Below, piece by piece: positions 21,779-64,000 of a stretch of DNA of 64,000 nucleotides. Location: contig JAFGDW010000300.1 of NCBI GenBank assembly GCA_016931935.1, positions 55,274 through 119,273 on the forward strand, written 5' to 3'. The stretch comes from Candidatus Zhuqueibacterota bacterium (GTDB lineage: Bacteria > Zhuqueibacterota > Zhuqueibacteria > Thermofontimicrobiales > Thiofontviventaceae). Under the pieces are notes generated by a model. That model made no database searches. It was not told the DNA's origin and saw only the letters and a program-made list of their open reading frames with translations. Position 1 is the first letter of the stretch. Each line of letters opens with the position of its first letter. Position numbers and translations under genes: made by a program.

Positions 21779-22018
21779 GGTTGCTCCTGTTTCCTGATCC
21801 GATTTGTTTGATAAGTTAAACTGAGAGCGATTTTTAATGGTTCCCATCAAAGTGAATTTCTTTTCGCGTGAAGATGTTTCTTTTATAAAACAAACGTTTG
21901 AAATAGTCGTGAAATTTTATAAGTCGAATGAAAAATCATGAACGAGCTGTCGTGTTACTCATTGTCTTTTGAACTTGCGTCCGTTGGCCATTGTCCGTTA
22001 TCCGTTATCCGTTCATCT

Positions 22019-38400: not shown

Positions 38401-40858
38401 ATACGGCGGTTCGGTAGCAGATATGGCCTACGATGAAGTACACGACATCGTTCTGGCAGCATTGAGCGCGCCGCAATCCGTATTTATTTCCGCTGACAGT
38501 GGTTTAACCTGGACGGCTGCATTCCCATATGATTCGTTGGAATTCTGGACCGGCCAGGAACGTCGCGGCTTTGGTGGCCGGGCTGACCAGGTACAAGCTT
38601 CCCTCGGATATTGTTATGCCAAAACCAGTCAGGAAGCTGGTACACTTACCGGTTCCCAGGTATCGTTTGATGGTATTAACTGGAAAACCCTGCTTGATCC
38701 ATACATGGTTGGCAATCTGTTAGGTACAACTTTTCCGGGACAAGCCAATGGTCAATATGCCATCGGCTCACTGTCAACGTATGGCCCGGTAGCGCTTGTA
38801 AGCGCGATGAATTTCGTATTTCGCACTACTGACGCCGGACAAACGTGGGATATTAGTGTCGTGCCAAATTCAACGGCATTTAATACAGATAAAACCATCA
38901 CGACAGTCGAATTATGTCGGGATGATCCGACGGGGCGCAGTTTTTATGTGGTGTTAACCGGTAATAACGGCTCATCCAATCCGGAATTCTATCGCACCCA
39001 TGATGGGGTTGATTTCAGTCGAATCTTTATCGTCTCCGGCGCTGATACAGTTCACAACGTTATGGGCATCACAACACATCCGTATGCCAGCGATACTTTA
39101 TGGGCAGCAGCTGTTGATGAAGGCAAGCCGACACTCGGCGGATTGTGGCGATCATACGACGCCGGAGCCAATTGGACAATGATTTACCCGGGCGGGAATC
39201 CCCATAATGCACCAATGGCAACAATTTATGAAGACATCAGCTATCCGGGACCAAATAATCTCCGAATTTTCATTGTCGGCGAAAACAAATATTCTGACGA
39301 TTTAGGCACCACCTGGGTAGAATTCAGTCCGCAAACTGATCCATATGTAGATCGTGGATCAAACGCCAGAGCGGGTATCGGTCATGTGACCAACACCGAT
39401 ATTTATTTTGCCATGGGTGACGGTGCGCCATCGCGCTCAACGACGGGTATTGATGGCTACTATCTGTTTGTGCCAACCGGACTTGAAGGCATAAATATCT
39501 GGGACATTGCCCAGGTACCTAACCAGGTTGATAAAGTCTATCTGGCAACAAGTGTCGGTATTGCCTATACATCCGAGTTTACGAATACCGCATTAACTTC
39601 CACGCAAAAATGGGCATCACCCTATGGCAATTATCCGATCAATCCGGCGCAAGGCGGTAATACCGGATTTACTGCGATTGAAATTGATCCGAACAATACG
39701 TTGCATGTTGTGGCAGCCAATGGCAATGCAATTTTTGTAACGATGAACGGCGGCTTTACCAATAACGATTGGGATGCCACCCAATATAGCGAAGTTAGCG
39801 GATTGGACGAATCCGAGTTTAAAGGACGTGGCGGCCAGGTCAGCCAGATTACATTTATCACCAGCGACACGTTGATCGCCTCTGTATTTTGTGAACATTC
39901 GCTTTATGGCGTGCTCATGCAAAGCACCGATGGTGGCTACACCTGGTCAACAATGCCACAAGCCGGTGAACATGCGTTCCGTACTGTTATTGCCGCGTGG
40001 AATAGTGCACAGGATTCGGTTGTGCTCTATGCCGGTGGAGGCCATGTTACAGAAGATGTGTTTACTCATGCCACCCTGATCGATTCGGGTGCAGTCTATC
40101 GTTCCGAAGATCGGGGCGCGACATGGTCACAAGTCTCCACGGCTCCACATGGTGTATTCAATCCCGCGCCGTATCCGTTGCCGATTAACAATATGATGGC
40201 AAAACCGGGCAGCCTGGATACGCTGTACATGGCGTGCGGTGAAAATTTGAGCAATGCCATTGTCCGAACGTTTGACGGTGGCGTCACGCTCGAATCGTTG
40301 AGCATGGCCGCAGTCGGCATGTTTGAGGGCGCGTTTGAAGCGGTGGCGATCAACAAGAATCATCCCGATAGCGTGTACTTTGCCGTTCGTCGTGATATTT
40401 TGGTGTACGATGCTGCTTCAAACACCACAGCCACAATGTTCCGCGGCTACCCGGGTGAATTGACCCACGCATTGTTATTTGATGAGTTGACAATGGGATC
40501 ATCATCCGGTTTCTACCAATTGACAGCGCCAACGAATACCGATCCCAGTGCGCTTGATGGTAAGAAAGCAACAATTCCGACACGAGTGGAACTGGCGCAG
40601 AACTATCCGAATCCGTTTAATCCATCTACCAGCATTATTTTCTCACTACCGCAGGACGGTAACGTGAAGCTGGAAGTATTCAACCTGATCGGCCAGCGAG
40701 TCGCCACGCTGCTTTCCGAACCACGGAAAGCCGGTGAACATCGCATCAGCTACCAGGCGGATGATCTGGCCAGCGGTATCTATTTCTATCGGCTACAGGT
40801 CACCTTTGCCAACGGACAGAAGCGAATTCTGTCGAAGAAGTTGATGGTGATCAAGTAG
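35462..40858 (+). CDS. Giant secreted protein: N-terminal Ig/cohesin-like domain, 5 tandem ~155-aa novel repeats with poly-Pro linkers, BNR/Asp-box-like beta-propeller region, and a T9SS type-A C-terminal sorting domain
   Basis: Start set at MQQYKK (signal peptide; AGGAGG RBS at ~35444). Repeats span aa 206-975 of the track ORF with a conserved F.F......PDS.F...FA.T.P.PADSQ.SRI core, ...LVHDG.DPF... and IEV.A..L.L. Followed by PPPPPPPPPPPTP. Then six or more SxDxGxTW Asp-box motifs (SADSGLTWT, TTDAGQTWD, SYDAGANWT, SDDLGTTWV, STDGGYTWS, SEDRGATWS). C-terminus QNYPNPFNPSTSIIFSLPQDGNVKLEVFNLIGQRVATL...SGIYFYRL matches the Por-secretion CTD signature. Confidence 0.8.
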   Translation: MQQYKKLFIITLVLLSTIFSMQIALVAQGQPPESPKGPMGIPFMLAFMPGDSAKIPVEFFESVPADSQVSGFAFTLVKNSSDLKFHGVDTAATALSHWTVDYTMSGDSIRVQANAPGGVYFTKPDGPPALLCAIRGMIYQGAAVGDSIGLQIRHVSIVKKGQTVALPDSMFGPSMIKLQTGDTPPQPGNTIAFTFLDTQSWPDSSFSIDFAVTEPVPADSQVSRIRGVMEAIPNEVMWSSSESMLSPQFSGWSLIVTPESGLVEFDLEAPNGTYLVHDGNDPFVIFSLGGNILSTSMPGTNIEVQADRLFLTIKGTELVTDPDKVHSGFIKIMGDEPPPPPPGNELSFSFGHSFSKPDSGFGLDFMITQPIPADSQLIRIHAKVVANPTEVIWTSNGQILAPELSNWALDIIPGDEFVEFELMSIDGSPLVHDGQDPFIVFNLTGVVKGYATPDHAIEVVATELELEVNNKVVTADPQIIMPGKIMLDDGENPPPPPDHGYLFSFNEAISDPGSYFNLMFALTSPVPPDSQLSRIRMVVQSMPPALNWAETGHSLQPIMSDWTLTVTPGPEATEFDLVAPPGVFLATDSSMSGLNLVLFSGEVAPDAPAQGMVDVQAKELFLTLNGVEKTIDPITVQPGKVLLGNGEEPPPGQQSLFAFFDTFSKPDSNFAMEFAITQPIPADSQLSRICAVVRAMPQELDWSPTGHMLAPGMESWSLNVTVGNDSMMFDIQAPTGQFITHDAMVPLVLATFVGGVRPSASVEQNIEVKAENLKLTIKGIEHEFDPGMIQPGKVRLNNNPDGPPPGGESLFIFFDTNAEPGTDFLLDFAVAMPVPADSEISRLQIGLKIEPNLLVWNADESKVAEELADWTLTSTAAGDSMEFDLQSTSGSFLVHDGFDPYRIATLAGSVQASAPQNAIIQLTATKIYVTMHGVVTSIPPTSIPPVKIMLGGHVGPPPPPPPPPPPTPISSGDGRMNLGLYGGSVADMAYDEVHDIVLAALSAPQSVFISADSGLTWTAAFPYDSLEFWTGQERRGFGGRADQVQASLGYCYAKTSQEAGTLTGSQVSFDGINWKTLLDPYMVGNLLGTTFPGQANGQYAIGSLSTYGPVALVSAMNFVFRTTDAGQTWDISVVPNSTAFNTDKTITTVELCRDDPTGRSFYVVLTGNNGSSNPEFYRTHDGVDFSRIFIVSGADTVHNVMGITTHPYASDTLWAAAVDEGKPTLGGLWRSYDAGANWTMIYPGGNPHNAPMATIYEDISYPGPNNLRIFIVGENKYSDDLGTTWVEFSPQTDPYVDRGSNARAGIGHVTNTDIYFAMGDGAPSRSTTGIDGYYLFVPTGLEGINIWDIAQVPNQVDKVYLATSVGIAYTSEFTNTALTSTQKWASPYGNYPINPAQGGNTGFTAIEIDPNNTLHVVAANGNAIFVTMNGGFTNNDWDATQYSEVSGLDESEFKGRGGQVSQITFITSDTLIASVFCEHSLYGVLMQSTDGGYTWSTMPQAGEHAFRTVIAAWNSAQDSVVLYAGGGHVTEDVFTHATLIDSGAVYRSEDRGATWSQVSTAPHGVFNPAPYPLPINNMMAKPGSLDTLYMACGENLSNAIVRTFDGGVTLESLSMAAVGMFEGAFEAVAINKNHPDSVYFAVRRDILVYDAASNTTATMFRGYPGELTHALLFDELTMGSSSGFYQLTAPTNTDPSALDGKKATIPTRVELAQNYPNPFNPSTSIIFSLPQDGNVKLEVFNLIGQRVATLLSEPRKAGEHRISYQADDLASGIYFYRLQVTFANGQKRILSKKLMVIK
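35546..38340 (+). repeat. Tandem in-frame coding repeats (~465-480 bp unit, ~6 copies counting the diverged first domain) inside the giant CDS
   Basis: Periodic protein motif (PADSQ[VL]SRI) recurs every ~155 aa. Units are separated by Pro-rich linkers (PPPPPPGN, PPPPPDHG, EPPPGQQ, GPPPGGE, PPPPPPPPPPPTP). Diverged at ~30-40% aa identity, so ancient rather than recent duplications. Confidence 0.6.
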
Positions 40859-49841: not shown

Positions 49842-50762
49842 TTAATCGTTCCAGGAAAGTATTTTCATTATTTTTTTACTGCCGCCTACATCACCAAACA
49901 ATTCCAGGTACTCCGGATTATATTGAATCGACACATGATTTCCGGTACCGGAAATGTCACCATTGGCCAAAATGCCGCCTACAACAGAACTCTCTGATGG
50001 AGAACCTCCACCGGTAAAATCCATTTCATAAATAACTTCTGATGTCGGATTTAACATATAAAGTACGCCTTCTACACGTGCAGATCCATTAATAACTATA
50101 TCTTTTTCCACGATAAAAATGCCATAAATATGTGTTCCACCACTGACTTTCATATCGCCTTTAATGTAGGTAATATTGGGAATTCCGGCTGCAGAATCGG
50201 CGTAAAAACTGCCATTGGGATATCCATCAGGAGGTTTGACCAGATCATTTGGATCGCCAAAATAATGCCCCTGAGAATCTGCCTTTGTTGCGAGGCCAAG
50301 AATATCAATGTATGGCATTTCACTGGCATTTGTCACCATGAGTGTGCTGTCGACATTGCGATTTTCGTCGAGCGGGGTAACTTTGTCAACATCACCGGTA
50401 GCATAAATTGCTTGCAGACCGACTTCAGATGTCAATTTCAAATCAACAGATACCTGATTCGTATAACTAGCCACATGTCCGACAGAAGTAAGACGCACAA
50501 GCGAATCCATATCATTGATACTTACTTCAAACGAGCCCTCATTACTGGACGTTTCATCGTACCCATCCCGCCAGTTAAAATTGCGTGAGATTTTTGAGAG
50601 TGCAAGGTTCATTCCGGATGTTGCCATATTCAAAGCGCCAATCTGTCCATATTCTTCAACCATTTGTTCGTGCTGCATTGACATACGATTTTGCTGGGTC
50701 ATCAATCCGGATGTAATTGTAAAGCTGATCCCTGCTAAAATGAGGAGTATTGCTTTTCCCAT
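49842..50762 (-). CDS. PilX-like (type IV pilus minor-pilin/assembly, PilX_N-like) membrane-anchored protein, paralog A
   Basis: 306 aa. N-terminal anchor MGKAILLILAGISFTITSGLM, followed by ...ALNMATSGMNLALSKI (PilX_N-like A..AEaG..A helix). C-terminus VEGVLYMLNP...GGGSPSESSVVGGILANGDISGTGNHVSIQYNPEYLE is typical of PilX-like proteins. No prepilin-peptidase G/FTLIE motif. Confidence 0.4.
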   Translation of the reverse strand: MGKAILLILAGISFTITSGLMTQQNRMSMQHEQMVEEYGQIGALNMATSGMNLALSKISRNFNWRDGYDETSSNEGSFEVSINDMDSLVRLTSVGHVASYTNQVSVDLKLTSEVGLQAIYATGDVDKVTPLDENRNVDSTLMVTNASEMPYIDILGLATKADSQGHYFGDPNDLVKPPDGYPNGSFYADSAAGIPNITYIKGDMKVSGGTHIYGIFIVEKDIVINGSARVEGVLYMLNPTSEVIYEMDFTGGGSPSESSVVGGILANGDISGTGNHVSIQYNPEYLELFGDVGGSKKIMKILSWND

Positions 50763-51203: not shown

Positions 51204-52118
51204 TTAATCTTTCCAGGTAAGAATTTGCATAACTCTCTTGCTCTGCCCAATCGAGCCAAATAATTCCATGTATTCTGGCTTATATTGTACCGAAATATGA
51301 CTTCCAGTTCCGGATACATTGGCGTTTGCCAATACCCCACCAACCACAGAGCTCTCTTCAGGGGTACCACCACCTAATGCTGTCAAATCGTAATAAACTT
51401 TTGCGGTAGGATTAAGTAAATACAAAACTCCTTCGACACGAGCTGATCCGTAAAGGATAATATCCTTTTCAACAAGAAAAATTCCGTATATTCTACTTCC
51501 ACCCTGAACTTTCAGAGTACCTTTGATATATGTAACATTCGGAACGTTCCCGACCTTATAAAAACTCCAGTTTGGGTAGCCGTCGTAAGGTTTGATTATA
51601 GCAGACGGGTCTCCAAAAAATTGGTATTGACTTACTGATAATTGTATCAACGGGACCAGATTTAACAATGGCATGGCATCGGCATCCTGAATCAATAAGG
51701 TGCTATCGACATTTCGATGCTCATCCAAAGGTATGACGTTATCTACCGTCGCCGTCGAATAAATCGCATATCGTCCGGCTTCTGTGGTTAATCGTACATC
51801 CACCTGAACTTTATTGCTAGCACCTGATGAATGACCTGTCGACGTAATCCTTACGAGTGAATCCATGTCATTGACTTGCACATCAAATGACCCTGATGAA
51901 ACTGAAGTCTCGCTATAACCTTCCCGCCACGTATAATCACGTTTAATTTTAGAAAGCGCCAGATTCATCCCCGAAGTTGCCAAATTCTTTGCGGCTAATT
52001 CTTCGTATTGTTCAACAACAATTTCATTTTGTTCGCTGATCTGTTTTTGGTGATTTACCAATCTGGTTGAAAAAGTAAAACCAAGACCAGCAATTATCAT
52101 TAACATTGCTTTGCCCAT
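51204..52118 (-). CDS. PilX-like membrane-anchored protein, paralog B (~55% aa identity to paralog A)
   Basis: 304 aa, same architecture. Shares LATSGMNLALSKI..., SGSF.V.VNDMDSLVR.TS.GH, NVDSTL, NVTYIKG.LKV.GG..IYGIF.VEKDI...GSARVEGVLY.LNPT and ESSVVGG.LAN...SGTG.H.S.QY.PEY.ELFG with paralog A. Confidence 0.4.
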   Translation of the reverse strand: MGKAMLMIIAGLGFTFSTRLVNHQKQISEQNEIVVEQYEELAAKNLATSGMNLALSKIKRDYTWREGYSETSVSSGSFDVQVNDMDSLVRITSTGHSSGASNKVQVDVRLTTEAGRYAIYSTATVDNVIPLDEHRNVDSTLLIQDADAMPLLNLVPLIQLSVSQYQFFGDPSAIIKPYDGYPNWSFYKVGNVPNVTYIKGTLKVQGGSRIYGIFLVEKDIILYGSARVEGVLYLLNPTAKVYYDLTALGGGTPEESSVVGGVLANANVSGTGSHISVQYKPEYMELFGSIGQSKRVMQILTWKD

Positions 52119-52399: not shown

Positions 52400-53071
52400 T
52401 TAGTTAACATTTGTATTCGTCAATGGTACGAAGACTGTATCATGCACCGACTTATAAATATAAATACAATCGCGGTAGACGGTATCGGTTTCCGCTTTAA
52501 TATATTCTACCATTTTATCCGGTAGTCGCGCTGCCTGGTCAGGTATTTCCATCAGGCGATTTTCATTATAACTCCACAACTCAAAAATCACCGTTGAGGT
52601 ATCCCGTTCAAACCGGATTTTAATAGGATAATCTTTGTAATTCTTGTTCAGGCCAGTAAGAATCGATCCGAAAATATTGTACGCCGGTCGATTATTTTCA
52701 TAATCTTCCAAAATACTAATATCTTTATTTTGAGCGGTGATTTGAAAGTTCGCAGTAAATTTCCACTGGTTCATTTTCGCCTGTGCCTTATCGCTGACAT
52801 ACTGAAGAAAATAAATTTGATCCGATGGATACAGCCGTACAATATCATTTTCCCCAAAACCATTCAGGCTGACGTCGATGATATCCATGCGCGTCACCAG
52901 CGTTTCGGGAATAAAAAATTCATCGAGAAAAAATTTGATAAGCTTACCGTCTTGAATCGTGACCAACGGTACACTGGTTTGATTGACAATTAATTCATCG
53001 CCGGCGTGAACCGAAATTGTTTGAATCAAGAATATAGTACTAATAAAAAAAAGTACGATCATTGATCGCAT
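52400..53071 (-). CDS. Hypothetical secreted protein (last gene of the exbBD-containing operon)
   Basis: Start set at MRSMIVLFFISTIFLIQTISVHA (signal peptide), 10 nt after the upstream gene's stop. The track ORF extends 43 codons further into the neighbouring gene. Confidence 0.45.
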   Translation of the reverse strand: MRSMIVLFFISTIFLIQTISVHAGDELIVNQTSVPLVTIQDGKLIKFFLDEFFIPETLVTRMDIIDVSLNGFGENDIVRLYPSDQIYFLQYVSDKAQAKMNQWKFTANFQITAQNKDISILEDYENNRPAYNIFGSILTGLNKNYKDYPIKIRFERDTSTVIFELWSYNENRLMEIPDQAARLPDKMVEYIKAETDTVYRDCIYIYKSVHDTVFVPLTNTNVN

Positions 53072-53081
53072 TTCGTGCTCC

Positions 53082-54119
53082 TTATCGCATGGTTTTCGTT
53101 TTTGCAGTTGTCCACCATGATAAAAATATTTTATAAAAATCTTCGGTGACTTCAGGGGTGGGTGTTTTTTGTTGGGAAATAAATGATGAAATCGTGCCAT
53201 CAGCAGCCCGTTTGATTGAGCCCAGCCGTAAGTAGTTGCTTTTCTCTTTCAATCCGCTATCGATGAGCAGCGTTAAATTATTTCGTTCGATTAAACAAAT
53301 TCGAATTTCCAAAATATTTATTTTGCACAGCAAAAACAACTCGTATACTTTTGAATTTATTTCAAACCGCGTATGTGACGTAAGATTTCCCGGCTCATAA
53401 TTTAAAAACCGTTTAAACACACTGCTAAATACCACGGGATTCGATTGCATCCACTGAATCAATTCGTGAATAATTGGCGATAAATCCTTTTCGTTTTCCT
53501 TAATGTCATCCGGGCGCAATTCAATTTTTATAATTTCCGCATCGGGGATTGCCTTGTCTACTTCCAATTTGTTAAATTGCGTTGGTGCAACAAACCGGAA
53601 TGCCTGCAAATCCAGCGGGGTGTCATCCGGCAAATCGACGATAATTTGTGGCACCTGTCCGGCTTCGGGAAACGGCACATCGTGCAGACTGGCGTATTCG
53701 GCCTGCTGCATCGAGACATTTACCTGATTCTTTGGCTGTTGATGCCGGGCGAACTGCATTTGCCGATCCACTCGCTCAGTCTGTGGAACAGCCAGCGCCT
53801 GGTATGTTTTACGGGGAAGGTCCAGCTTGCTGGTGATGTCCGCATCCAGCGATTCAATTGACGGGATAATAATTGCATTGTCGCGGTATCGCGTGATTTT
53901 GTCATCGGGCTGCGGTAATCGTGAATGGCCGGTTTTCTTTGGCGTTGTTTCTTCAATATGAAAAATTGTCCAGTCGATTTCTTTCTGTGGTGCACGAAAC
54001 AGATACTTCCCCGGAGATACCCGGATTCCGGCGAGTAACAAGTAGGTAAAAATCAACCCGATCATTAATATAAGATCGCAGATGCGTTTTTCTATTTTAA
54101 CACGATCACTAAATTTCAT
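53082..54119 (-). CDS. Membrane-anchored hypothetical protein in the TonB position of an exbB-exbD-exbD operon, with no recognisable TonB C-terminal domain
   Basis: 345 aa. N-terminal TM ICDLILMIGLIFTYLLLAGI and a modestly Pro/Gln-rich middle. Its start overlaps the exbD stop by 11 nt. Confidence 0.45.
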   Translation of the reverse strand: MKFSDRVKIEKRICDLILMIGLIFTYLLLAGIRVSPGKYLFRAPQKEIDWTIFHIEETTPKKTGHSRLPQPDDKITRYRDNAIIIPSIESLDADITSKLDLPRKTYQALAVPQTERVDRQMQFARHQQPKNQVNVSMQQAEYASLHDVPFPEAGQVPQIIVDLPDDTPLDLQAFRFVAPTQFNKLEVDKAIPDAEIIKIELRPDDIKENEKDLSPIIHELIQWMQSNPVVFSSVFKRFLNYEPGNLTSHTRFEINSKVYELFLLCKINILEIRICLIERNNLTLLIDSGLKEKSNYLRLGSIKRAADGTISSFISQQKTPTPEVTEDFYKIFLSWWTTAKTKTMR

Positions 54120-54510
54120 AATGAATGCTCTTGGGAATGCCGTTCATTTCACACAGGTCAATCAGATCGACGGTTGTTTGAATCATTGTATTTTCGTCCG
54201 GGTAGATTATCACCATCATATCCATGCCCTGCGCACGCCAATCGTCACGCACACGCTGGATCAATGCATCGACATCGGATATTTTGGTGATCAATGGCCA
54301 AAAGGTATCACCGCATGATAGCTGGAATTCGGTATCGCTATTAACGCGAATGGTTAATACCTGTCGTTTGACAATCGCCGGACTTTCGTTTCCACCGGTA
54401 GGAAGTTTAATTTGGGTTTTGACAGTAAAATCGGAAATACCGATAAAACCGAGTAATAATATCAACACAACATCAATTAACCGAATGATGAGACCACCTT
54501 TGCTGAACAT
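54109..54510 (-). CDS. exbD: ExbD/TolR biopolymer transport protein
   Basis: 133 aa. GGLIIRLIDVVLILLLGFIG TM plus an ExbD periplasmic domain. Confidence 0.8.
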   Translation of the reverse strand: MFSKGGLIIRLIDVVLILLLGFIGISDFTVKTQIKLPTGGNESPAIVKRQVLTIRVNSDTEFQLSCGDTFWPLITKISDVDALIQRVRDDWRAQGMDMMVIIYPDENTMIQTTVDLIDLCEMNGIPKSIHYEI

Positions 54511-54567: not shown

Positions 54568-54966
54568 TCATTTCCCTTTCCGAATCACATCAATGCCTTT
54601 CAGCAACTGCCGCTGATCACAAAGGTTTGCCAGTGCGATGGTGTATTTTATCGGCGTATCCCAATTCGCGCGAATTTGCACCCGTGGCCGTTTTTCAGAA
54701 TCTTCCAGGCCAGCGAGCTGTTTGTCTATATAGCCAACAAGTTCATCATGGGACGTGAGCGTTTGCGTTTCATTGTCCACAAGAAAATTCCCATCCCGAT
54801 TAATCCCGATAATTAAGGTTTCCCCGTTTGACGGATTGGTAAGTGGCGTGGCTTCACTCGTTGGCAGCTCAATTTGACTATGCCGACTGATTTCACTAAT
54901 GGAAATAAAACCAAATAACAGAATCAGCACCACATCAATCAGCCGAACGATTATTCCACCTTTTTG
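54568..54966 (-). CDS. exbD: ExbD/TolR biopolymer transport protein (second copy)
   Basis: Start at MQKGGIIVRLIDVVLILLFGFISI. Paralog of the downstream exbD. Confidence 0.8.
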   Translation of the reverse strand, partial: QKGGIIVRLIDVVLILLFGFISISEISRHSQIELPTSEATPLTNPSNGETLIIGINRDGNFLVDNETQTLTSHDELVGYIDKQLAGLEDSEKRPRVQIRANWDTPIKYTIALANLCDQRQLLKGIDVIRKGK

Positions 54967-54970
54967 CATG

Positions 54971-56473
54971 CTATTGCCCCAATACTTCAAATTCTATTTT
55001 GGAACGACGCAAGCCCTTGGCGGTCACAACGATTGAATTGAATCCCGGCTCGGTATTCAGTGTGAAATAACTTTTGGCATATCCGTTTGAATCGGTTTGT
55101 GCAACATAACTATTGCGATTGCCCGGGAAGTACCCTTTCCCCATTTTGACTTTAAAAAGCACAGTTTCATTGGGAATCGGATTCTTGAAACAATCGAGTA
55201 ACTGGACAACAAACGGTTCACCAATTTCCCGACCTGCGGGTAAATTTTGATGATTCCCGGATACATATTTTAGCTCGGATGGATCTGCCGGACGCCCCAG
55301 TGCTTCAAACTGGACAAATTTACCGTTATTGTTCAGCCGGGCATTCACAATATTAGTACCGGCAACATTGCCCAGTGTCAGATATGTTTCCGCCAGCCCT
55401 GCTTCATCGGTCAAAATTTCTTCAACTTTATTGCCGTTTTTAAATGTACCGTTGCCATTTTCAATTTTGAAAGTAACCAGTTGATGGATCATACTGTTTC
55501 CGTCTTCATCGTGTACTTTTACCTGCAACGGTTTTTTAAGACGTGTATTCACGGGCGCCGCCTGATGATCTCCGGCCAGCGGTGCAATTGTCAGGTGCTT
55601 CGGCACGGATTCCGGTTCCGGCGTGACTTTTTTCTCGGAAGTAAATAAGTTCTCATCTTCAAAATCATTAATCTCTGCTGCTTCATGTTGCGGCGCTTGA
55701 TAGCGGAAACCTTGTTGCTGGGAGATGAGCAACCGCAATCTCAATTCTTCACCTTTAGTCAGAATCGTATCCATCTGTTTGCGAAATGCACCCTGCAATT
55801 GGGTTGAGAAAAAATTCAAAACAATACTGACGACCAATCCCATCAACGTGGTGACGAGCGCCAGTCCCATTCCATGGAGTATCACTTGATTGTCGAGATT
55901 TCCACGGAAAAATGTAACGAACATTCCCCAGACAGTTCCCAACAAACCGAGCGCCCCGGCGGTATCCGATAAGAACGATATTTTCGATTGGAATGTGCTG
56001 AATTTATCCTGCTGTAACTGAACATGATTGGTTATTTCGTAATGGGCATCGACCGCCGAATTTGTCGAGCGATACACATTCAGCATGTTCATGTATAGCT
56101 GATGGAGTAAATTATTCGGTGTATTTTGTACTGTCTGTTCGATATGCCGGAGCGATGCCGCTTTTGTATTCAATTCTAGAATATCTTTTGATCGGCGTTT
56201 GTCCATAAGTAAATCGGCATATCTGTAAAGCATTGTGGCTAAGCCAGCGACCAAAACCAGGATAATCACCCAGCGTAATCCACCAGCCAGTCGGGTGATT
56301 TCCCAAATCGATTTAAAATCGGATAACCGGGTTAAAGAGCCGGGATCGACCACTTGAGCAGCGGCAACATCGAGCGTCGAATCGATTGCTGCTGCCGCCG
56401 GGGCGTCCTGGCAGAATCCTTGTGAAGTCACAAGGATTATAAACATCATGAATAGAAATGCAACGCGCTGCAT
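54971..56473 (-). CDS. MotA/TolQ/ExbB proton-channel family protein with a ~230-aa C-terminal extension containing two Ig-like (Big/invasin-like) domains
   Basis: Start at MQRVAF (signal peptide). Three TMs with the ExbB signature AGALGLLGTVWGMFVTFF / GMGLALVTTLMGLVVSIVLNFF. C-terminus LQVKVHDEDGNSMIHQLVTFKIENGNGTF...EILTDEAGLAETYLTLGNVAGTNIV... and a second similar unit ...TVLFKVKMGKGYF...AQTDSNGYAKSYFTL...NSIVVTAKG resemble Big_1-type beta-sandwiches. Confidence 0.7.
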   Translation of the reverse strand: MQRVAFLFMMFIILVTSQGFCQDAPAAAAIDSTLDVAAAQVVDPGSLTRLSDFKSIWEITRLAGGLRWVIILVLVAGLATMLYRYADLLMDKRRSKDILELNTKAASLRHIEQTVQNTPNNLLHQLYMNMLNVYRSTNSAVDAHYEITNHVQLQQDKFSTFQSKISFLSDTAGALGLLGTVWGMFVTFFRGNLDNQVILHGMGLALVTTLMGLVVSIVLNFFSTQLQGAFRKQMDTILTKGEELRLRLLISQQQGFRYQAPQHEAAEINDFEDENLFTSEKKVTPEPESVPKHLTIAPLAGDHQAAPVNTRLKKPLQVKVHDEDGNSMIHQLVTFKIENGNGTFKNGNKVEEILTDEAGLAETYLTLGNVAGTNIVNARLNNNGKFVQFEALGRPADPSELKYVSGNHQNLPAGREIGEPFVVQLLDCFKNPIPNETVLFKVKMGKGYFPGNRNSYVAQTDSNGYAKSYFTLNTEPGFNSIVVTAKGLRRSKIEFEVLGQ

Positions 56474-56489
56474 GTCAATCTCCTTAATT

Positions 56490-58193
56490 TCATTGCCGTT
56501 TCGCATGTCGCACTGCAGGGAGTGACTGAGCCTCCTGCTGTAATTCCGGTGTCATGACCGCCGGCTCAGTCGAAAAGTCAATGCTCGTTCGTTGATGTCG
56601 AGTCACAATTACAAGCTGCCCTTTTGCGGAACGTTGAATATTTTTATTGTCATAAGTCCAGGTGAACTGATAAGAATATACGCCAGGGCGCAGCTTTTCC
56701 ATGATCGGTTTGTCCAGTTCCCATACAATCCGTGAAGGAATCCGGCCAATACCATCAAACCATTGGATGCCCAGCCCCTTGTCATCCTGGATTATCAAAT
56801 GCCACGATTTTGCCCGGCCACGTCGTCCTTTAATGCGGAATTCGATGCGGTCAGGGTTACATTTATAAGATTCGTTCGATTGATTGGTTAATTTCTGATC
56901 ATTTTTTCCCGGCATTGGTAATTTTTCACGGCGGATTCGGGCAGTCGGGATCGCCTCGAGCAACTCGTCCGCTACCTTTGTGGAGTCACGCATTAAAATC
57001 TCCGCGATGCCGTTCGCCGGATCGATCACATGCTGTCCAACCTTTTGTAATGATTGCTGATATGCCGCTGTCAAGATTTCTGTTGAATCCTTTGAACCAC
57101 CAATAAAAACGATATACCGTGTTTGCGATTCTGGAGCAACGGGTTTATTTATTTCAGTTTTTAATGCGGTGGTCAAATGCCGCCACTCACGTTTGTTCAA
57201 TTTTTCATCGACACGCTCTTCAGAACAAATTCGTTGAACCTCAATCTGCTTTACCGAAGCGTCTACCTGAAGCAGTGCATCTTCTACCGGTGGTGCGGCT
57301 TTATAATTGATGATTGGACGTTCATCACCAAAAGCAAATACCAGACCAACCTGATGCGAACCGATGCTGAAATCCTGAAATTCATTCGTCGGATAGTCGT
57401 ACGTGTAGAACATTTGCATACGATCGGCAACACTCAGTCGTCCCTCGAATTCAATACCATCGGACGTATAACCAAAACGTAATATGCCGCGATCGTTAAT
57501 TTTATAGTCAAGCATTCCGCCGAGCGTTTCCTGATCCAGCAGTGTGATACCAGCAGCGAAACTGCCACGCATATAGCTAATGCCAACATCGAGACGATAA
57601 GGCAGGCGCGCGTCACCGCCGACAAGCGATAAATTTGGCTCGGTTAAATTACTCATGCCGACACCGATCCGCAAATCATAGCGCGGCTGAAACAATAAAC
57701 CAACGCCTACACTATGCGCCAGCGATTGCACGCCATTGGCAAATAACGGATCGTTCGCATCACCCAACTGAAACTGATCCTGCTGATACGACTGATAGAA
57801 GATTTGCCACGATGCTCCCACACTTAGCGATTCCAGCAACCGATAGGCTGTCTGTGCCTGAATGTGTGACTGCTGGTACATCGCAATGCCAAATTGCTGC
57901 CCGTTGATACCAATCACCCACTCACGATCCAACAGGAACGGACTGGTAATATTGAAATAATTCGCCCGCAAGCCAAACTTGTCCTGCTCAAGAAAGCCAA
58001 CGTGCAGCATCTTAACACCCAGCGATACATGCCACGGCTGCAGTGCAATCACAGCCGGATTAATCAGCGAACTGCGGCAATCAAACACATCCGCCGGATT
58101 GCTGTCAATCCAATGTTGGGCTTTCAGCGGCCCGACTGCCACAAGTATGCTGATGGTGACAAGAATGAATGTTTTCGGACGATTTAATTTCAT
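56490..58193 (-). CDS. PorP/SprF-like T9SS outer-membrane protein with ~270-aa C-terminal extension
   Basis: 567 aa. Signal peptide MKLNRPKTFILVTISILVAVGPLKAQ. The N-terminal ~290 aa carry ...SSLINPAVIA (family NPAxxG/A motif) and an alternating beta-strand pattern. It lies directly downstream of a type-B-CTD cargo gene, which is the classic sprB-sprF arrangement. The C-terminal part (WHLIIQDDKGLGIQWFDG...PGVYSYQFTWTYDNKNIQRSAKGQLVIV) is beta-sandwich-like. Confidence 0.5.
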   Translation of the reverse strand: MKLNRPKTFILVTISILVAVGPLKAQHWIDSNPADVFDCRSSLINPAVIALQPWHVSLGVKMLHVGFLEQDKFGLRANYFNITSPFLLDREWVIGINGQQFGIAMYQQSHIQAQTAYRLLESLSVGASWQIFYQSYQQDQFQLGDANDPLFANGVQSLAHSVGVGLLFQPRYDLRIGVGMSNLTEPNLSLVGGDARLPYRLDVGISYMRGSFAAGITLLDQETLGGMLDYKINDRGILRFGYTSDGIEFEGRLSVADRMQMFYTYDYPTNEFQDFSIGSHQVGLVFAFGDERPIINYKAAPPVEDALLQVDASVKQIEVQRICSEERVDEKLNKREWRHLTTALKTEINKPVAPESQTRYIVFIGGSKDSTEILTAAYQQSLQKVGQHVIDPANGIAEILMRDSTKVADELLEAIPTARIRREKLPMPGKNDQKLTNQSNESYKCNPDRIEFRIKGRRGRAKSWHLIIQDDKGLGIQWFDGIGRIPSRIVWELDKPIMEKLRPGVYSYQFTWTYDNKNIQRSAKGQLVIVTRHQRTSIDFSTEPAVMTPELQQEAQSLPAVRHAKRQ

Positions 58194-58382: not shown

Positions 58383-61300
58383 TTACCGCGCCAATACCAC
58401 ATATCCCCGCGATACATGGCGATCTCCGTCCTGGAGTACGTACAAATACACGCCCGGTAAAACTAATTGTCGGTCGCGGTTCATTCCATCCCAGACAAAT
58501 GTTGATGCGGATGGGGTATGTAACGTAATGACCGGTCGCCCCTGCATATCAAATACTTTTAATGAAGGGTGACTTAGCTGGAACCGTGAAAAATCAAATT
58601 CCACTTCGTCGTTAAATCCATCATTATTCGGGGTGAACGGATTGCTGCTAAGCCGCAATTCACCTTCGTTGACACGGATATAGATATCCACGACATTGTT
58701 CGTCTCATCAGATTCGGTGATACGATTGTCCGGATCGACGGTAAAACGAATCAGGTGTCTGCCAATTGTATCAAATTGCACGGCTGCATCCATCCTCTGT
58801 TCAAAAGACACTGGCAGATTATTCACTGTTTCCGCGTCGATGATTTCACCTTTGTGTTCAAACTTCATATCGAATGGCTGCTCCACGTCAACTTCGTTCG
58901 CGATCACCTGTCCGTGAACATTCACAGATGAATGAACAAGCAAAGTGGTGCTGTCCGCTGAAATCGACGCCACCAAATCGGGTAACGCTTCACGAATAAA
59001 AAAATACGATTGCCAATTTTGCAGACAATTTGCCGGTTCGCTGAGATCGCATGCATCAACGCGTACAGTCACTTTTTCTCCTGATGCAAAACCTGTATCC
59101 GGTGTGTATTCAATTATAAATTCATTCGGAGTACCGGAAATATCAGGTGTTACATCAATATTATTCACCTGCACCTGAATGCTCTCCTGCGATACGCCTG
59201 CAACATCATCCAATAATCGAAATAGTATCGTCGGTCGGTTCAGTACATTGGTTTCGCCTGGTGCAGGTTGCATATCGACGATGTAGGGCGCAATAGTATC
59301 AACACGCGTCCAAAAAATAAATTCAGCATCGCTTTTGTTCGGCGGCACGATCAAATCGGCTGCATTCGCTGAAATACGGATTTGCTGATTGTATGCAAAG
59401 CGATTTTCGGGCTTCCATTCAACCGTTGTGTATTTGGGTGTTCCAGCAATATTGGGTTGGACAATTTCATTATTCACTCGTAACTGAATCGAACCAGCGT
59501 CCACTCCACTTTGCGTGTCCGTAATTTCAAACTGAAGTGAACTGGTAACAGGAACTTCAACGGCAGAATCGCCGGGTGAAATAAATCGAATAACCGGCGG
59601 CTGCACATCTGTTTCGGGATAAAATACGTATTTTTCCGTCGGCATTATGTTAGGAGTATCCGCAAGGTCAGCAGCGTCAATTTCCACTGTTACGCTGTCG
59701 CCATAAGAAAATGGCGTCGCTGGTTTGTACATTAATTGATAATCATAAACAAAACCGTTAATCATCGGTCTGACTGACCGGCCATTGATGCGCATTTTAA
59801 TTGATTGTAGATCGACACCCGACTGCAAATCCGCCAGATGCACGGCGACGGAATCAGTAATCCGGACATTCGTTTGTCCGGGCGTCGGATGGTGGCCGTA
59901 AGTAAACGGCGCTTGTCTGTCACGTCGGTCAGTCAACTTGAACGTGTAGGTTGAATCCAACAAATTTGCCGGATGTGAAAGATCGCGTGCATGAATCCGA
60001 ACACGAATTTGCTGGCCATGCGCCTGATTGGGTGGCATGTGTGACGACACAAACCAAACATCCCCTTCGCGATGCATTTCCAACACCGATGCCATTGAAA
60101 CGTCGTTCACCACAATCCCAACCGCCGATGTATCGACGCCGGCGACAGCATCCGTTAATCGGAAGGCAATATGGGCGGATGGTAGCACGCCTGTATCTCC
60201 CGGTGCAGGCGTTAAATAGCTCAAAATCGGCGGCTGCTTGTCTTCTATGATTGAAAATGAATAATCATCGGGATTCATCTGATTGGGATGCCGGGCATAA
60301 TCCTGTGCGGTCAGCCGGACAGAGACAATTTGATTGTACTGAAATAGTGTATCCGGTTGCCAGCTTATCCGATACCCCTGACTGAGTTTCTGAAATGATG
60401 GCACGACACTCCCGCCATTCACGCGGAGATTGACGAAACTGGTGTCGACACCGCTCATATCGTCCTGAATAGTCATCGAAATGGCTGTATTTCTGGGCAC
60501 CTGCTCAGCCGACTTTGCCGGTTGGTGCGCCGATGTCCAGGGCGGAAGCGAATCCCGCAATGTATAAAACTGATACTTCAATTCAGATGCATTTCCCGGC
60601 TGGGCCCTATCCTTTGCGGTAATGCGGATATTGATAGTATCATTTTCCATAAATTGCTGTGCTGGGTGAAATGTCAGTGTGCTGCCATCCACAAGCAGCG
60701 GTTCTGCATTTTTGGCATCGACATACAAACGCACATCGGCAACACCCGTGCGATCATCCGTTACTTTGAAAGAAATATTCGTATTCAGTGGGACATTCGT
60801 TTGACCTGCTGTTGGCGATACCGGTGCTATCACCGGTCCCAATGTGTCCTGTGCAATAAAGAATCGATAGAAATAAGGTGGCTGAATCGCATTCGGCGGA
60901 TTTGATTTATCGGCTGCAGCTACTGTGACACTCACGGTATCATTATAGGCAAACGACAATTCGGGCATCAAAATCCGTGTATGCAACATATCGCCATCAA
61001 TTGTCGTTGGCACAAGCGGATTATTCTGCACGTGCACCTGTATCGTGTTCCAATCCACACCAGCGATTGTATCCGCCAGCATAAATTGAATGGCGAGCTG
61101 TTTCACATCATTGGTCGAATTTGCGAGTGGATAAACAGGCACAACCCGGGGGGGCGTCACATCACGTTGCAGGGAAAATTGATACGATTCATCCATAGCA
61201 TTTGGCGTGTATGCCATATCCTGTGCTGTTACACGAACAGTCACATGATTATTGAATAAAAACGGAGTATTCGGCTGCCAGGTGAGCGTAATTATTTTGT

Positions 61301-63224
61301 TCTCAGCGCCAATCTGCATTGCTGGCATCACCGGTGCGTTATTGACCCACATGTGAATCGAATTCACCTCGACGCCACGATAATCATCATGTACCTCGAC
61401 GATAATTGGTTTATCCAGGGGCGCATCCAATGCATCGGCTAATGGTTGCACAGGATTAAGGTAAGGCGCAACCGAATCCGGAAGCATTTTGCCGAGCCCA
61501 TAATACGTAATCAATGTCTTGGATTCACCTGCCTGCATAAACACCGGTTCCCACCACATGGCGACAGCGCTATCGAACGTAATTCTGCTGGTATCGTTAA
61601 GGGTGTAATCCCATGGTTGGCGGAAGATATCGCGCCAGCGCAAAATCGCGAAACGGTCGGGAACCGTCGCATCGTATTTTTTTAGCGTTCCCTGTGCGGA
61701 AAAAATCGTACGGGTTGGATCGCCCTCAATCGCCGTCCACCACTCGGGAATTGCTGCCCCAATAAACTCCTGCTCCATCTGGACAAAATCACCATCCGCA
61801 GTTTTGATGGGCGCACCATCATTTTCACCAAGCATGGTATCAAACAAAATCCGTAACCCAATAACTCTGCCAGCCCCGTTATTGGTAATTGTGTATCTGA
61901 GCTCAGCCGTATCTTCGATTCTATCCACCGACCACTCACTACGCGTCAGCGAAATTGTTTGATCAACACGTACATTCTTGTATGTCCAACTCCAGGTAAC
62001 GGCCGGATCGCCATTTCCCAGTTGAATAGCTGTCGGAATGCTTCGTTGACCGTTAGTCACCACAGCCTCACCCTGGTCCGATCCGAACACTGCCACTTCA
62101 TCTTCAACTTTGAGGGTTGTATATGATGTATGCGGCCAGGGATGGCCGAACAGCAACGGCTTGTTATCGTCCCAGAATGTATTTGGGAGACCTTCCAGCG
62201 TTTGCATGGAGAAATTTGTGCCCGGATATTTATCCGTGACCATCACCTCAATAAATTCATTTTGAATTTTTGTATAAGTCACCGGTGTCAATGAAAAATT
62301 GATATTGGGGATGGTATCACCTGAAGTCACGACAACCGGATATGGAATTTCGGCGGTATGATATTTTGTTGGGTCGACACTGAAAATATATATACGATAA
62401 TTTCCGGGAGCTAATCCTGCTGCACAGTATTCACCGGTTTTCCAGCTACTATTGGCTTCGGAACACCACTGATGCGTTTCCCAATCTTCGACAACCACCC
62501 AGGCAGATATAGGCGCAGCAGGCTGGCCATCGTCCAGTACAAGCCCTTTTATTGCCCCACCTTTAGCCAACTGAAAATCAATATCATCGACCGTGTCACC
62601 AACTGTGACCGTTACCGGATAGGCCATATCCCACGTCGGCGAATTTTTATAGTACGTGGTAATGTAACCGAGTCCCGGATTTCCGGCCAGGATAATATGG
62701 CGTCCCGCTGGCAATGCCGGACTGATATATTCTCCCTGTCGGTTATTCATCGCATAGCCACGATCGATTTTTTCCCGGGCATCATAAAAACCAACATTAA
62801 TCGCATCACGAACTATGTCACCGTTGGGCGTACGTATAATACCCCGGATAAAACCGCCCTGATCGAGATGGAAATCGATACCAGTGATAATACTTTCCGG
62901 ACTTATTTTGATGGTTACAGCATCCGCCGGATTCAGAACGTTATTATAGTACTCATCCACATAATCATCCACATTAACGACTCGAACAATATATTCGCCA
63001 GTCGCGATGGATTGAATACGGTAATGACCGGAGGCGTCTGTTCTGGCGTCATAGTCAAAATGCGTGCCGGCACTCTGCTTGGCGCGAACCACGACATCCG
63101 CTAACGTACGACCATCATAGCTGTATACTGTGCCTTCAATAGTGCCTGCGTGTGCAAATTCATATGAATATAGCATGGCCACGACACCCAAAAGCACACC
63201 GATTCGATGCAAGTGCATTTTCAT
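58383..63224 (-). CDS. SprB-like giant cell-surface adhesin with T9SS type-B C-terminal sorting domain
   Basis: Start at MKMHLHRIGVLLGVVAMLYSYEFAHA (signal peptide). N-terminus has three carboxypeptidase-regulatory-like domains (GTIEGTVYSYDGRTLADVVVRA...TDASGHYRI). Eight ~95-aa SbsA/Big_5-like Ig repeats follow, with consensus D..PP.I....P..G.TNV.....I.F...D..SGVD..SI...VN. C-terminus NPFTPNNDGFNDEVEFDF...VFDMQGRPVITL...WDGMNRDRQLVLPGVYLYVL matches the gliding-motility type-B CTD. Confidence 0.75.
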   Translation of the reverse strand: MKMHLHRIGVLLGVVAMLYSYEFAHAGTIEGTVYSYDGRTLADVVVRAKQSAGTHFDYDARTDASGHYRIQSIATGEYIVRVVNVDDYVDEYYNNVLNPADAVTIKISPESIITGIDFHLDQGGFIRGIIRTPNGDIVRDAINVGFYDAREKIDRGYAMNNRQGEYISPALPAGRHIILAGNPGLGYITTYYKNSPTWDMAYPVTVTVGDTVDDIDFQLAKGGAIKGLVLDDGQPAAPISAWVVVEDWETHQWCSEANSSWKTGEYCAAGLAPGNYRIYIFSVDPTKYHTAEIPYPVVVTSGDTIPNINFSLTPVTYTKIQNEFIEVMVTDKYPGTNFSMQTLEGLPNTFWDDNKPLLFGHPWPHTSYTTLKVEDEVAVFGSDQGEAVVTNGQRSIPTAIQLGNGDPAVTWSWTYKNVRVDQTISLTRSEWSVDRIEDTAELRYTITNNGAGRVIGLRILFDTMLGENDGAPIKTADGDFVQMEQEFIGAAIPEWWTAIEGDPTRTIFSAQGTLKKYDATVPDRFAILRWRDIFRQPWDYTLNDTSRITFDSAVAMWWEPVFMQAGESKTLITYYGLGKMLPDSVAPYLNPVQPLADALDAPLDKPIIVEVHDDYRGVEVNSIHMWVNNAPVMPAMQIGAENKIITLTWQPNTPFLFNNHVTVRVTAQDMAYTPNAMDESYQFSLQRDVTPPRVVPVYPLANSTNDVKQLAIQFMLADTIAGVDWNTIQVHVQNNPLVPTTIDGDMLHTRILMPELSFAYNDTVSVTVAAADKSNPPNAIQPPYFYRFFIAQDTLGPVIAPVSPTAGQTNVPLNTNISFKVTDDRTGVADVRLYVDAKNAEPLLVDGSTLTFHPAQQFMENDTINIRITAKDRAQPGNASELKYQFYTLRDSLPPWTSAHQPAKSAEQVPRNTAISMTIQDDMSGVDTSFVNLRVNGGSVVPSFQKLSQGYRISWQPDTLFQYNQIVSVRLTAQDYARHPNQMNPDDYSFSIIEDKQPPILSYLTPAPGDTGVLPSAHIAFRLTDAVAGVDTSAVGIVVNDVSMASVLEMHREGDVWFVSSHMPPNQAHGQQIRVRIHARDLSHPANLLDSTYTFKLTDRRDRQAPFTYGHHPTPGQTNVRITDSVAVHLADLQSGVDLQSIKMRINGRSVRPMINGFVYDYQLMYKPATPFSYGDSVTVEIDAADLADTPNIMPTEKYVFYPETDVQPPVIRFISPGDSAVEVPVTSSLQFEITDTQSGVDAGSIQLRVNNEIVQPNIAGTPKYTTVEWKPENRFAYNQQIRISANAADLIVPPNKSDAEFIFWTRVDTIAPYIVDMQPAPGETNVLNRPTILFRLLDDVAGVSQESIQVQVNNIDVTPDISGTPNEFIIEYTPDTGFASGEKVTVRVDACDLSEPANCLQNWQSYFFIREALPDLVASISADSTTLLVHSSVNVHGQVIANEVDVEQPFDMKFEHKGEIIDAETVNNLPVSFEQRMDAAVQFDTIGRHLIRFTVDPDNRITESDETNNVVDIYIRVNEGELRLSSNPFTPNNDGFNDEVEFDFSRFQLSHPSLKVFDMQGRPVITLHTPSASTFVWDGMNRDRQLVLPGVYLYVLQDGDRHVSRGYVVLAR

Positions 63225-63720
63225 GATGCTTTGGTGCAATAATCTTGTTTTGGATTTTTTAAAGATAAATAGGATGGACGAAATTATCCTATGTTCCCTT
63301 TCCACGGCTGCAAATATAGGATGGCTTCCTCCATTTGAACTGCTTTATCAACTGGAGGTTTGTAACAAAGATGATAGAACTTGCGACTACATTATAGCAA
63401 AAGGTTGGCTAAAATGCAAGTTTTTTTTACTAAACAGAGATAATTTTATCAATAAATATATTATCTTTATGGGATTATAATAAAATCAAATATATCATTT
63501 CAATAGATACAAAATGTTAACCCAATATTCTCAACCACTAATACGCATCAAAAAAATGTCACCATTCTATCAATATTGTAACTTTTCTTGAATTACCGGA
63601 TTGTAATTCATAAAAAACAATATAGCTATGAAAGATAATTTGTAATCGTTCACAGGGTTTCAGAATGGTACTCCAATTTTTGGTGCCCTACATACTGTCT
63701 TCAGGAAACAGTTGATCAGA

Positions 63721-63787
63721 CAAGGAGATGGGGCGACAAGGTGACAGGGAGAAACAATAAATTGTTTATCATCTCCCCATCTCCTTG
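63721..63787. repeat. Hairpin with 13-bp stem enclosing an AT palindrome, in the 5' region of the adhesin gene
   Basis: caaggagatgggg(63721-33)/ccccatctccttg(63775-87). Inner palindrome aacaataaattgtt(63753-66). Confidence 0.35.
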
Positions 63788-64000
63788 TCACCCTGTCTCC
63801 CACTCTCGATGCCTGGTGTTCTAATATTACGACCGAGCCACGAAAATATTGCCTTCATACACCTGTGAACGGTTACGATAATTTGTATTTTTCAATTAAT
63901 GATGAAGCGAACTTGCTACACCTTATTATTTCAAAATCAGATAGTACGTTTAACGTCAGCGAGCCGTCAAACGGGATGCGCAAGTCAGACAACTTAGTCC

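Follow-up and report, generated by a model that had tools for sequence, protein, structure and literature searches.

The genome of Candidatus Zhuqueibacterota bacterium (GenBank assembly GCA_016931935.1) encodes an unusual proton channel subunit, here called ExbB-Ig, in which an ExbB/TolQ-class core is followed by two C-terminal Ig-like domains of the Big_1 family. The gene lies in a stretch of 64,000 nucleotides from contig JAFGDW010000300.1 (positions 55,274 to 119,273 of the forward strand), which was analysed as a whole and is referred to as the window. We rate the finding as a known motor family that carries a new cytoplasmic appendage and that belongs to a new, widely conserved gene cluster associated with type IX secretion (the T9SS). 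The interpretation that we favour, with a little more than an even chance of being correct as a whole, is that ExbB-Ig is part of a motor that runs on proton motive force (PMF), which holds a tethered accessory Ig module in the cytoplasm and acts on a surface protein with a type-B C-terminal domain (CTD), hereafter the cargo.

The minus strand of the window contains exbB-Ig as a single unbroken gene of 500 codons plus stop (54971-56473). If the open reading frame (ORF) is counted from the first ATG, it covers 54971..56506 and 511 codons; however, the start at 56473, which corresponds to Met12 of this frame, is preferred because the motif AAGGAG is located 6 nt upstream and because the resulting 500-aa product is identical to the database protein P0001. 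The gene contains neither a frameshift nor an internal stop, and its longest homopolymer run is A6. The sequence-only reading had described an ExbB/TolQ homologue with a signal peptide, a three-helix core and two Ig-like domains, and had named a frameshift that separates exbB from an independent Ig protein as a reason to abandon this description. The gene proved to be unsplit, and the description of the protein was borne out in nearly all parts. Indeed, residues 155-247 match the Pfam family MotA_ExbB (PF01618) with 54.4 bits (cut-off 22.9), and two stretches match Big_1 (PF02369) with 48.5 bits (cut-off 34.9). The signal peptide is indicated by an N-terminal hydropathy peak of 1.86. Only two small points had to be revised: the gene is on the minus strand, and the size of the extra C-terminal part changes from about 230 to about 240 residues, consisting of a linker of about 34 residues and two domains of about 103 residues each.

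The core is built in the order periplasmic amphipathic helix, transmembrane segment (TM) 1, cytoplasmic helical loop, TM2-TM3 hairpin and cytoplasmic continuation of the TM3 helix. The hairpin contains the invariant motifs GALGLLGTVWGMF and GMG.AL.TT, and the threonines of GTVWG in TM2 and of TT in TM3 (T180, T208 and T209) are invariant among 45 sequences. We take these residues to be equivalent to T148/T181 of the E. coli ExbB protein. Moreover, the core gave weak profile matches to the solved structures of ExbB (6ye4/7ajq, E ~2e-3) and TolQ (9avi). An AlphaFold2 (AF2) model, which was generated from an alignment of 45 sequences and has a mean pLDDT of 86, consists of a helical core up to residue 259 (helices 66-94, 141-189 and 195-259), a disordered stretch (residues 260-293) and two beta-sandwiches (residues 294-395 and 398-500) with pLDDT values above 95. 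Thus, the concern that the extension might be disordered does not hold for its Ig part in the model. A Foldseek comparison with the PDB identified intimin D0-D1, invasin, InvD, InvE and FdeC as the best matches (E-values of 5.5e-10 for 6tpl and 1.8e-8 for 1cwv). The two Ig-like domains are 31% identical to each other (E = 4e-13), which points to an internal duplication. The C-terminal strand of the second domain (...FEALGQ), which closes the protein, is kept in the family.

The fusion is not a peculiarity of the window. A word-indexed protein search with ExbB-Ig yielded 228 relatives, and most of the 120 that were listed are 490-550 aa long and combine MotA_ExbB with Big_1; their sources are KSB1 bacteria, Balneolales and unclassified bacteria. 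In the databases they bear generic names such as 'MotA/TolQ/ExbB proton channel family protein' or 'Ig-like domain-containing protein'. Altogether, more than 100 protein clusters, formed at 90% identity and derived from NCBI, JGI, ENA and Logan assemblies, contain the fusion. After the loci of three distant relatives had been looked up, a locus survey that took one genome from each species detected 106 loci and retained 80 of them, and all ORFs in 83 loci were searched with profiles. The fusion is present in 75 of the 83 related loci, corresponding to about 75 species-level genomes from KSB1/Zhuqueibacterota, Calditrichota, Balneolales, Rhodothermales, Gemmatimonadota and Ignavibacteria (Melioribacteraceae). 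Two carriers, Rhodohalobacter sp. 8-1 and Balneolaceae bacterium ANBcel3, are isolates. Hence, homologues with the same architecture, for which the sequence-only reading had proposed a search, are abundant. It is next to impossible that exbB was joined to a separate Ig protein by a frameshift from assembly or sequencing or by an error in gene calling. Such an artefact could be suspected since the two parts are found in different frames at a homopolymer in seven Balneolales metagenome-assembled genomes (MAGs; see below). However, the ORF in the window is continuous with no run longer than A6, and the same fusion recurs in over 100 independent protein clusters, isolate genomes among them. Judged from these sequence comparisons, we regard the fusion as real and old.

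Hydropathy analysis detected only four hydrophobic segments in ExbB-Ig, namely the signal peptide (15-33) and the TM segments 75-93, 182-200 and 215-233 (511-aa numbering). No TM segment was found after residue 260 of the window protein (KD19 at most 0.77), and none of 69 homologues from the loci has a fourth one, with a maximum KD19 of 1.36 after the core. A hidden TM4 in the window protein or its relatives was ruled out on this basis. Furthermore, the flanks after TM1 and TM3 are rich in lysine and arginine, both in the window protein and across the family alignment. The AF2 core adopts the canonical ExbB arrangement, in which the TM3 helix extends 37 residues past the membrane before the linker begins. 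Because no fourth TM exists in any of the 69 relatives, the Ig pair is predicted to reside on a flexible tether in the cytoplasm, and the sequence-only reading had arrived at the same topology.

A non-canonical topology that places the Ig domains in the periplasm, where they could contact the periplasmic partners of the cluster, would agree with the fact that all other cluster proteins are periplasmic or outer-membrane proteins and that the nearest relatives of the Ig pair are repeats of giant, presumably extracellular proteins. We consider this topology very improbable since the fourth hydrophobic segment is missing from the window protein and the 69 relatives, the positive-inside rule and the AF2 model both give the canonical arrangement, and the out-of-frame Ig segments of the Balneolales possess neither a signal peptide nor a start codon.

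When only the Ig pair was used as query, an exhaustive phmmer search gave 9,920 representatives at E <= 1e-3. The best 150 of these 9,920 matches are proteins of 1,000-5,800 aa with 5-28 matching stretches each and 26-37% identity to the query, and no other motor fusion was found among them. The Ig pair thus goes back to Big_1 repeats of the kind that is common in giant surface proteins, which makes an intracellular location unusual. The same can be said with respect to intimin and invasin: ExbB-Ig shares the Pfam family and the fold with them, and its identity to giant-protein repeats is 30-37%; however, their Big_1 domains are extracellular spacers, whereas the ExbB-Ig pair hangs from the cytoplasmic end of a channel subunit. 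An extracytoplasmic location, which is usual for Big_1 though not a formal criterion, is not what the predicted topology gives for ExbB-Ig.

A search for operon partners, which had likewise been proposed, uncovered a conserved T9SS-associated cluster in the 83 loci. Its core order is type-B-CTD cargo, extended PorP/SprF, ExbB-Ig, ExbD, ExbD, the bitopic protein X345 (about 350 aa) and the secreted, periplasmic protein X266. Most genomes carry in addition two TPR lipoproteins of about 340 and 505 aa, giving the full nine-gene order TPR (~340 aa), cargo, PorP/SprF, ExbB-Ig, ExbD, ExbD, X345, TPR (~505 aa) and X266. The window and its closest relatives (L004-L007 and L009) have the seven-gene version without both TPR lipoproteins. 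Counted only where the flank of a locus was sufficient, the extended PorP/SprF protein is present in 71/78 loci, the cargo in 66/72, two ExbD in 70/73, X345 in 63/65, X266 in 50/52 and the TPR protein of 505 aa in 45/52. The cluster is conserved across the Fibrobacteres-Chlorobi-Bacteroidetes (FCB) superphylum, from KSB1 to the Rhodothermales. The genes are packed or overlap: the ATG of the first ExbD gene lies 1 nt past the exbB-Ig stop, the ATG of X345 is located within the end of the second ExbD gene, and X266 is provided with a Shine-Dalgarno sequence of its own, 10 nt past the X345 stop. ExbB-Ig is translationally coupled to the ExbD paralogues.

Both ExbD paralogues contain the TM aspartate in the motif RLIDVVLILL, and together with the invariant TM2/TM3 motifs of ExbB-Ig the parts for proton-driven action are therefore present. 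X345 occupies the position of TonB in the cluster. It consists of a TM segment (residues 3-31), about 160 disordered residues, which form a proline-rich spacer in relatives, and an alpha/beta domain (residues 200-345), as modelled by AF2 from a shallow alignment of nine sequences. The C-terminal domain of X345 matched no known family. The PorP/SprF protein has a conserved C-terminal extension of about 280 aa past the barrel, shows full-length homology with its counterparts next to the gene in L001-L003 and has relatives of about 600 aa across the loci; the TIGR03519 score of the window protein (40.8) is below the cut-off of 90.55. In several loci (L004:8008-9780, L006:7670-9448 and L052:5376-7265), the extension matches a CHU_C profile that was built from the cargo CTDs, and the PorP/SprF anchor itself may thus have a CTD-like domain. 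The cargo varies in length from 154 to 2,079 aa across the loci, and only its CTD is conserved. In the window, the cargo is assigned to CHU_C (PF13585) with 34.9 bits (cut-off 27), and the score for TIGR04131 (28.5) is below the cut-off of 35. Both marks of a T9SS module, a cargo with a type-B CTD and an adjoining PorP/SprF protein, were found with Pfam.

Since all other cluster proteins are marked as envelope proteins by a signal peptide, lipobox or TM helix, the partner of the Ig pair would be encoded outside the cluster. The TPR proteins were considered as cytoplasmic partners of the Ig pair and discarded, as both families have lipoprotein signals and are absent from the window cluster.

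The number of Ig domains is modular (0, 1 or 2). Eight loci contain the same cluster with an ExbB that ends after the core, and about a dozen loci encode a single Ig domain, which resembles Ig1 in one KSB1 group and Ig2 in the Gemmatimonadota. In seven species-level MAGs of the Balneolales (L064, L069 and L071-L075), the Ig part is not in the frame of the core. The frame junction is a conserved 'C AAA AAA AAA (A)' run, which comprises ten adenines (A11 in L074), is placed in the same codon phase and is followed by a zero-frame stop 6-13 nt downstream. The addition of one A gives a stop-free fusion of 515-552 aa in five of the seven MAGs and a product of 406 aa in L075; L069 needs the opposite shift to restore the fusion. 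The out-of-frame Ig region has neither a start codon nor a signal peptide and can therefore be produced only as a C-terminal extension of ExbB. Its ratio of non-synonymous to synonymous substitutions (dN/dS) is 0.15-0.25 at dS values of about 0.9-2.2. This pattern would fit programmed transcriptional or ribosomal slippage as a candidate mechanism that makes a minority of long subunits. Genomic phase variation is a poorer fit, as the 'off' form is found in all seven genomes.

In the window gene itself, an A6 run lies in frame (GAGAAAAAAGTC, encoding 'EKK') at 55631-55636 in the linker (gene nt 840), at about the same position as the A10 run of the Balneolales. This run is too short to imply slippage in the window gene.

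Conservation is unevenly distributed over the protein, with an information content of 1.97 bits per column in Ig1, 2.17 in Ig2, 2.15 in the cytoplasmic loop of ExbB and 0.89 in the linker, which is net acidic and 23-185 aa long in the family. The Ig pair is under selection but dispensable to the core motor. The natural variants with 0, 1 or 2 Ig domains and the purifying selection on the out-of-frame segments therefore favour an accessory rather than a torque-generating role of the Ig domains. It is conceivable, although unlikely, that the five Ig pairs attach to a static structure in the cytoplasm or simply add drag, so that the pentamer is held in place and the ExbD dimer rotates with X345 and passes torque across the periplasm, as GldM has been proposed to do inside GldL. 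This would agree with the conservation of the Ig domains; moreover, the cluster lies beside PorP/SprF and type-B cargo like the GldLM-dependent SprB/SprF (PMC9143113), and GldL has a cytoplasmic domain as well (PMC8986121). However, the Ig-less ExbB proteins are encoded in otherwise identical clusters, and in the seven Balneolales species most of the product would be without the Ig part. Moreover, a linker that is disordered, poorly conserved and between 23 and 185 aa long makes a poor rigid anchor.

The arrangement ExbB-ExbD-ExbD-(bitopic protein) is also the usual layout of Ton systems in FCB bacteria. The best NCBIfam match of ExbB-Ig is exbB2, and some X345 relatives have proline-rich spacers, as mentioned above. 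An ordinary Ton system for nutrient uptake with a neutral, decorative extension of ExbB is nevertheless very improbable. ExbB-Ig failed the Ton equivalogs TIGR02805 (32.8, cut-off 135.35) and TIGR02797 (20.1, cut-off 206.2), and no TonB-dependent transporter (TBDT) belongs to the conserved cluster, in which the syntenic outer membrane protein is PorP/SprF. A partner of the TonB type, recognised by its TonB C-terminal domain together with a conserved histidine in the TM segment, is also missing from the cluster. The TolQ equivalog TIGR02796 scored 25.2 (cut-off 221), and neither a TolB nor a Pal-like gene was found in the cluster. Because the ExbB and TolQ equivalog scores are far below the cut-offs, the system is neither Ton nor Tol-Pal by the tested criteria, but it probably works like one. 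ExbB-Ig shares with ExbB and TolQ the PF01618 domain, the three TM segments, the periplasmic N-terminus, the long cytoplasmic helices, the GTVWG-type TM2, the TM3 threonines and an ExbD partner with a TM aspartate. It differs from them by its strong divergence, the approximately 240 extra C-terminal residues, a partner that is neither TonB nor TolA, and neighbours that are PorP/SprF and T9SS cargo instead of TBDTs or TolB/Pal.

Other motors with cytoplasmic extensions are instructive for comparison. The cytoplasmic domain of GldL comprises residues 59-189 (PMC8986121), and proteins with a type-B CTD have PorP-like proteins as their binding partners and anchors (PMC9143113). Like GldL/PorL, ExbB-Ig would be a PMF motor subunit of the inner membrane that has a sizeable cytoplasmic C-terminal region and is associated, genetically and functionally, with PorP/SprF and CTD cargo. 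However, the two are unrelated in sequence: GldL, with only two TM segments, works with GldM, whereas ExbB-Ig is of the ExbB type, is paired with ExbD and has a Big_1 pair as its cytoplasmic module. The ZorA protein of the Zorya system is a pentamer subunit of the MotA/ExbB family with a long cytoplasmic C-terminal extension outside the core that conducts the ions (PMC11946911). In ZorA, this tail forms a long bundle of helices, whereas ExbB-Ig has Ig domains on a flexible linker and is encoded in an envelope/T9SS cluster instead of a defence island. Zorya or another defence system was rejected as an explanation, since the Zorya models gave only weak matches to the TM2-TM3 core (E = 1e-4 to 1e-3) and ZorB, ZorC and ZorD were not found among the neighbours.

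The overall composition of the cluster is reminiscent of the Agl-Glt gliding machinery of Myxococcus, which consists of AglR/AglQ/AglS, GltG/J, TPR proteins, outer membrane barrels and the adhesin CglB. Both have a TolQ-like protein plus two TolR-like proteins, a TonB-shaped protein that spans the periplasm, TPR proteins, an outer membrane barrel and an adhesin. They differ in lineage and in the proteins themselves: the outer membrane part of the present cluster is PorP/SprF with T9SS type-B cargo, and its TPR proteins are lipoproteins instead of cytoplasmic proteins. AglR is not known to carry Ig domains.

According to the interpretation that we favour, ExbB-Ig would form a PMF-driven motor of the 5:2 type with ExbD1 and ExbD2. 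X345 would span the periplasm and couple this motor to the type-B cargo anchored by PorP/SprF, and the motor would energise the handling, anchoring or movement of the surface protein, like GldLM/PorLM linked to PorP/SprF. The Ig pairs, up to five per motor, would serve as tethered cytoplasmic protein-binding modules, which may recruit a regulator or position the motor via a partner encoded outside the cluster. Comparable to the cytoplasmic domains of GldL/PorL or the ZorA tail, the Ig tail is most likely a regulatory or positioning module of a dedicated PMF motor, and one clade within the Balneolales might make the Ig form only by recoding. Several points weigh against this proposal. A cytoplasmic role of Big_1 has no precedent in the family, whose nearest members are of the extracellular type, and none of the cluster genes codes for a cytoplasmic protein that the Ig pair could bind. 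X345 shows neither a detectable resemblance to the C-terminal domains of TonB or TolA nor a conserved TM histidine, so that its putative role as a transducer is assigned from its position and architecture only. The cytoplasmic topology, the 5:2 stoichiometry, the PMF dependence and the interactions are predictions from sequence, and the link of the motor to T9SS is drawn from synteny alone. A more far-reaching version is tentative and more doubtful: the cluster might be a hitherto unrecognised PMF-powered trans-envelope machine, made up of an ExbBD-type motor, X345 as a novel TonB-shaped transducer and the extended PorP/SprF barrel, that drives or gates a type-B-CTD protein independently of GldLM, with the Ig domains as an intracellular handle and, in one Balneolales clade, a ratio of Ig-bearing to Ig-less subunits set by programmed slippage at the conserved A10-11 tract. 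If this were true, adhesin-type Ig domains would here for the first time be found at work inside the cell, as the regulatory or anchoring handle of a motor.

Full-text literature searches for the fusion, the cluster and bacterial cytoplasmic Ig-like domains revealed no description of them, and neither the fusion nor the cluster is described in a 2025 survey of periplasmic force transducers, in a review of 5:2 motors or in the study of PorP-like proteins and type-B CTDs (PMC9143113). The cluster addresses the question of how energy is routed from the inner membrane to PorP/SprF-anchored type-B cargo, for instance gliding adhesins. A single compact operon with seven to nine genes combines the motor, a candidate transducer, the outer membrane anchor and the cargo, and some carriers are cultured; therefore, the question of energy transfer is genetically testable. 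The Ig pair would join the GldL domain and the ZorA tail as a third cytoplasmic appendage on the pentamer of a 5:2 motor, and it would extend the known habitat of Big_1 to the cytoplasm. The natural variants with 0, 1 or 2 Ig domains and the recoded forms offer ready comparisons. For specialists of Ton, Tol and T9SS motors the finding should be surprising, and it can be tested in cultured Balneolales.

Table. Coordinates of exbB-Ig, its domains, the genes of the cluster and selected variants in other loci; positions refer to the window unless a locus is named
Feature	Position	Strand	Evidence or remark
ExbB-Ig gene	54971..56473	-	single ORF, AAGGAG 6 nt upstream, exact match to P0001
Signal peptide (or uncleaved TM0), residues 1-22	56408..56473	-	hydropathy peak 1.86; homologues with equivalent hydrophobic N-termini
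ExbB/TolQ-class core, residues ~45-259	55697..56341	-	PF01618, invariant columns, AF2 helices
Acidic disordered linker, residues 260-293	55595..55696	-	pLDDT below 50; lowest conservation, 0.89 bits
Ig-like domain 1 (Big_1), residues 294-396	55286..55594	-	Pfam Big_1, pLDDT above 95, Foldseek
Ig-like domain 2 (Big_1), residues 397-500	54974..55285	-	Pfam Big_1, pLDDT above 95, Foldseek
ExbD paralogue 1	54568..54990	-	likely ATG 54969; Pfam ExbD (PF02472) 44.7 bits
ExbD paralogue 2	54109..54510	-	Pfam ExbD (PF02472) 47 bits; orthologous ExbD1/ExbD2 pairs across loci
X345, bitopic inner-membrane protein, 'TonB position'	53082..54119	-	
X266, secreted, signal peptide, last conserved gene	52400..53071	-	likely ATG 53071 with Shine-Dalgarno sequence; homologues in 50/52 loci
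Extended PorP/SprF outer membrane protein, 567 aa	56490..58193	-	PF11751 35 bits, cut-off 22.3; barrel ~94-288
Surface-protein cargo, 1640 aa: CarboxypepD_reg, Big_5, CARDB, CHU_C	58383..63305	-	CHU_C residues 1554-1637 (~58395-58646)
Stop-rich non-coding region upstream of the operon	63306..64000	-	best sigma-70-like match of the region 63474-63503, 11/12 positions
Ig-less ExbB loci	L060:3904-4809, L062:9842-10741, L067:9644-10462, L080:9788-10618		
One-Ig examples	L003:10001-11305, L051:1558-2976		
Split-frame sites	L064:7040-7100, L069:10780-10830, L071:5320-5360, L072:4540-4575, L073:2985-3020, L074:5080-5115, L075:5690-5725		

The scan for promoters and terminators gave site counts at the shuffled expectation, and the sigma-70-like match upstream of the operon is a match by consensus only. 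Scans of the whole 64-kb window detected neither an Rfam family at the gathering threshold nor a gene for tRNA or tmRNA. Elsewhere in the window, a PorV-family protein is encoded at 20834-21850 on the minus strand (PF19572, 30.6 bits, cut-off 27) and a protein of 1,814 aa bearing a T9SS tail of type A (Por_Secre_tail) at 35414-40858 on the plus strand. These two proteins suggest that the KSB1 host uses T9SS-type sorting.

Directly downstream of the cluster, two tandem paralogues of 306 and 304 aa (49842-50762 and 51204-52118, both on the minus strand) are 57% identical; they have an N-terminal hydrophobic, pilin-like segment and no Pfam match. They were considered as cluster members and rejected, since none of the 83 other loci has them. 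Finally, the region 1286-11913 on the minus strand is an outer membrane biogenesis block, which encodes an LpxA-like protein, an LpxC-FabZ fusion, LpxD, OmpH/Skp, BamA and a TamB-like protein of 1,368 aa. The BamA protein has four POTRA matches plus Omp85, and the block as such is ordinary.

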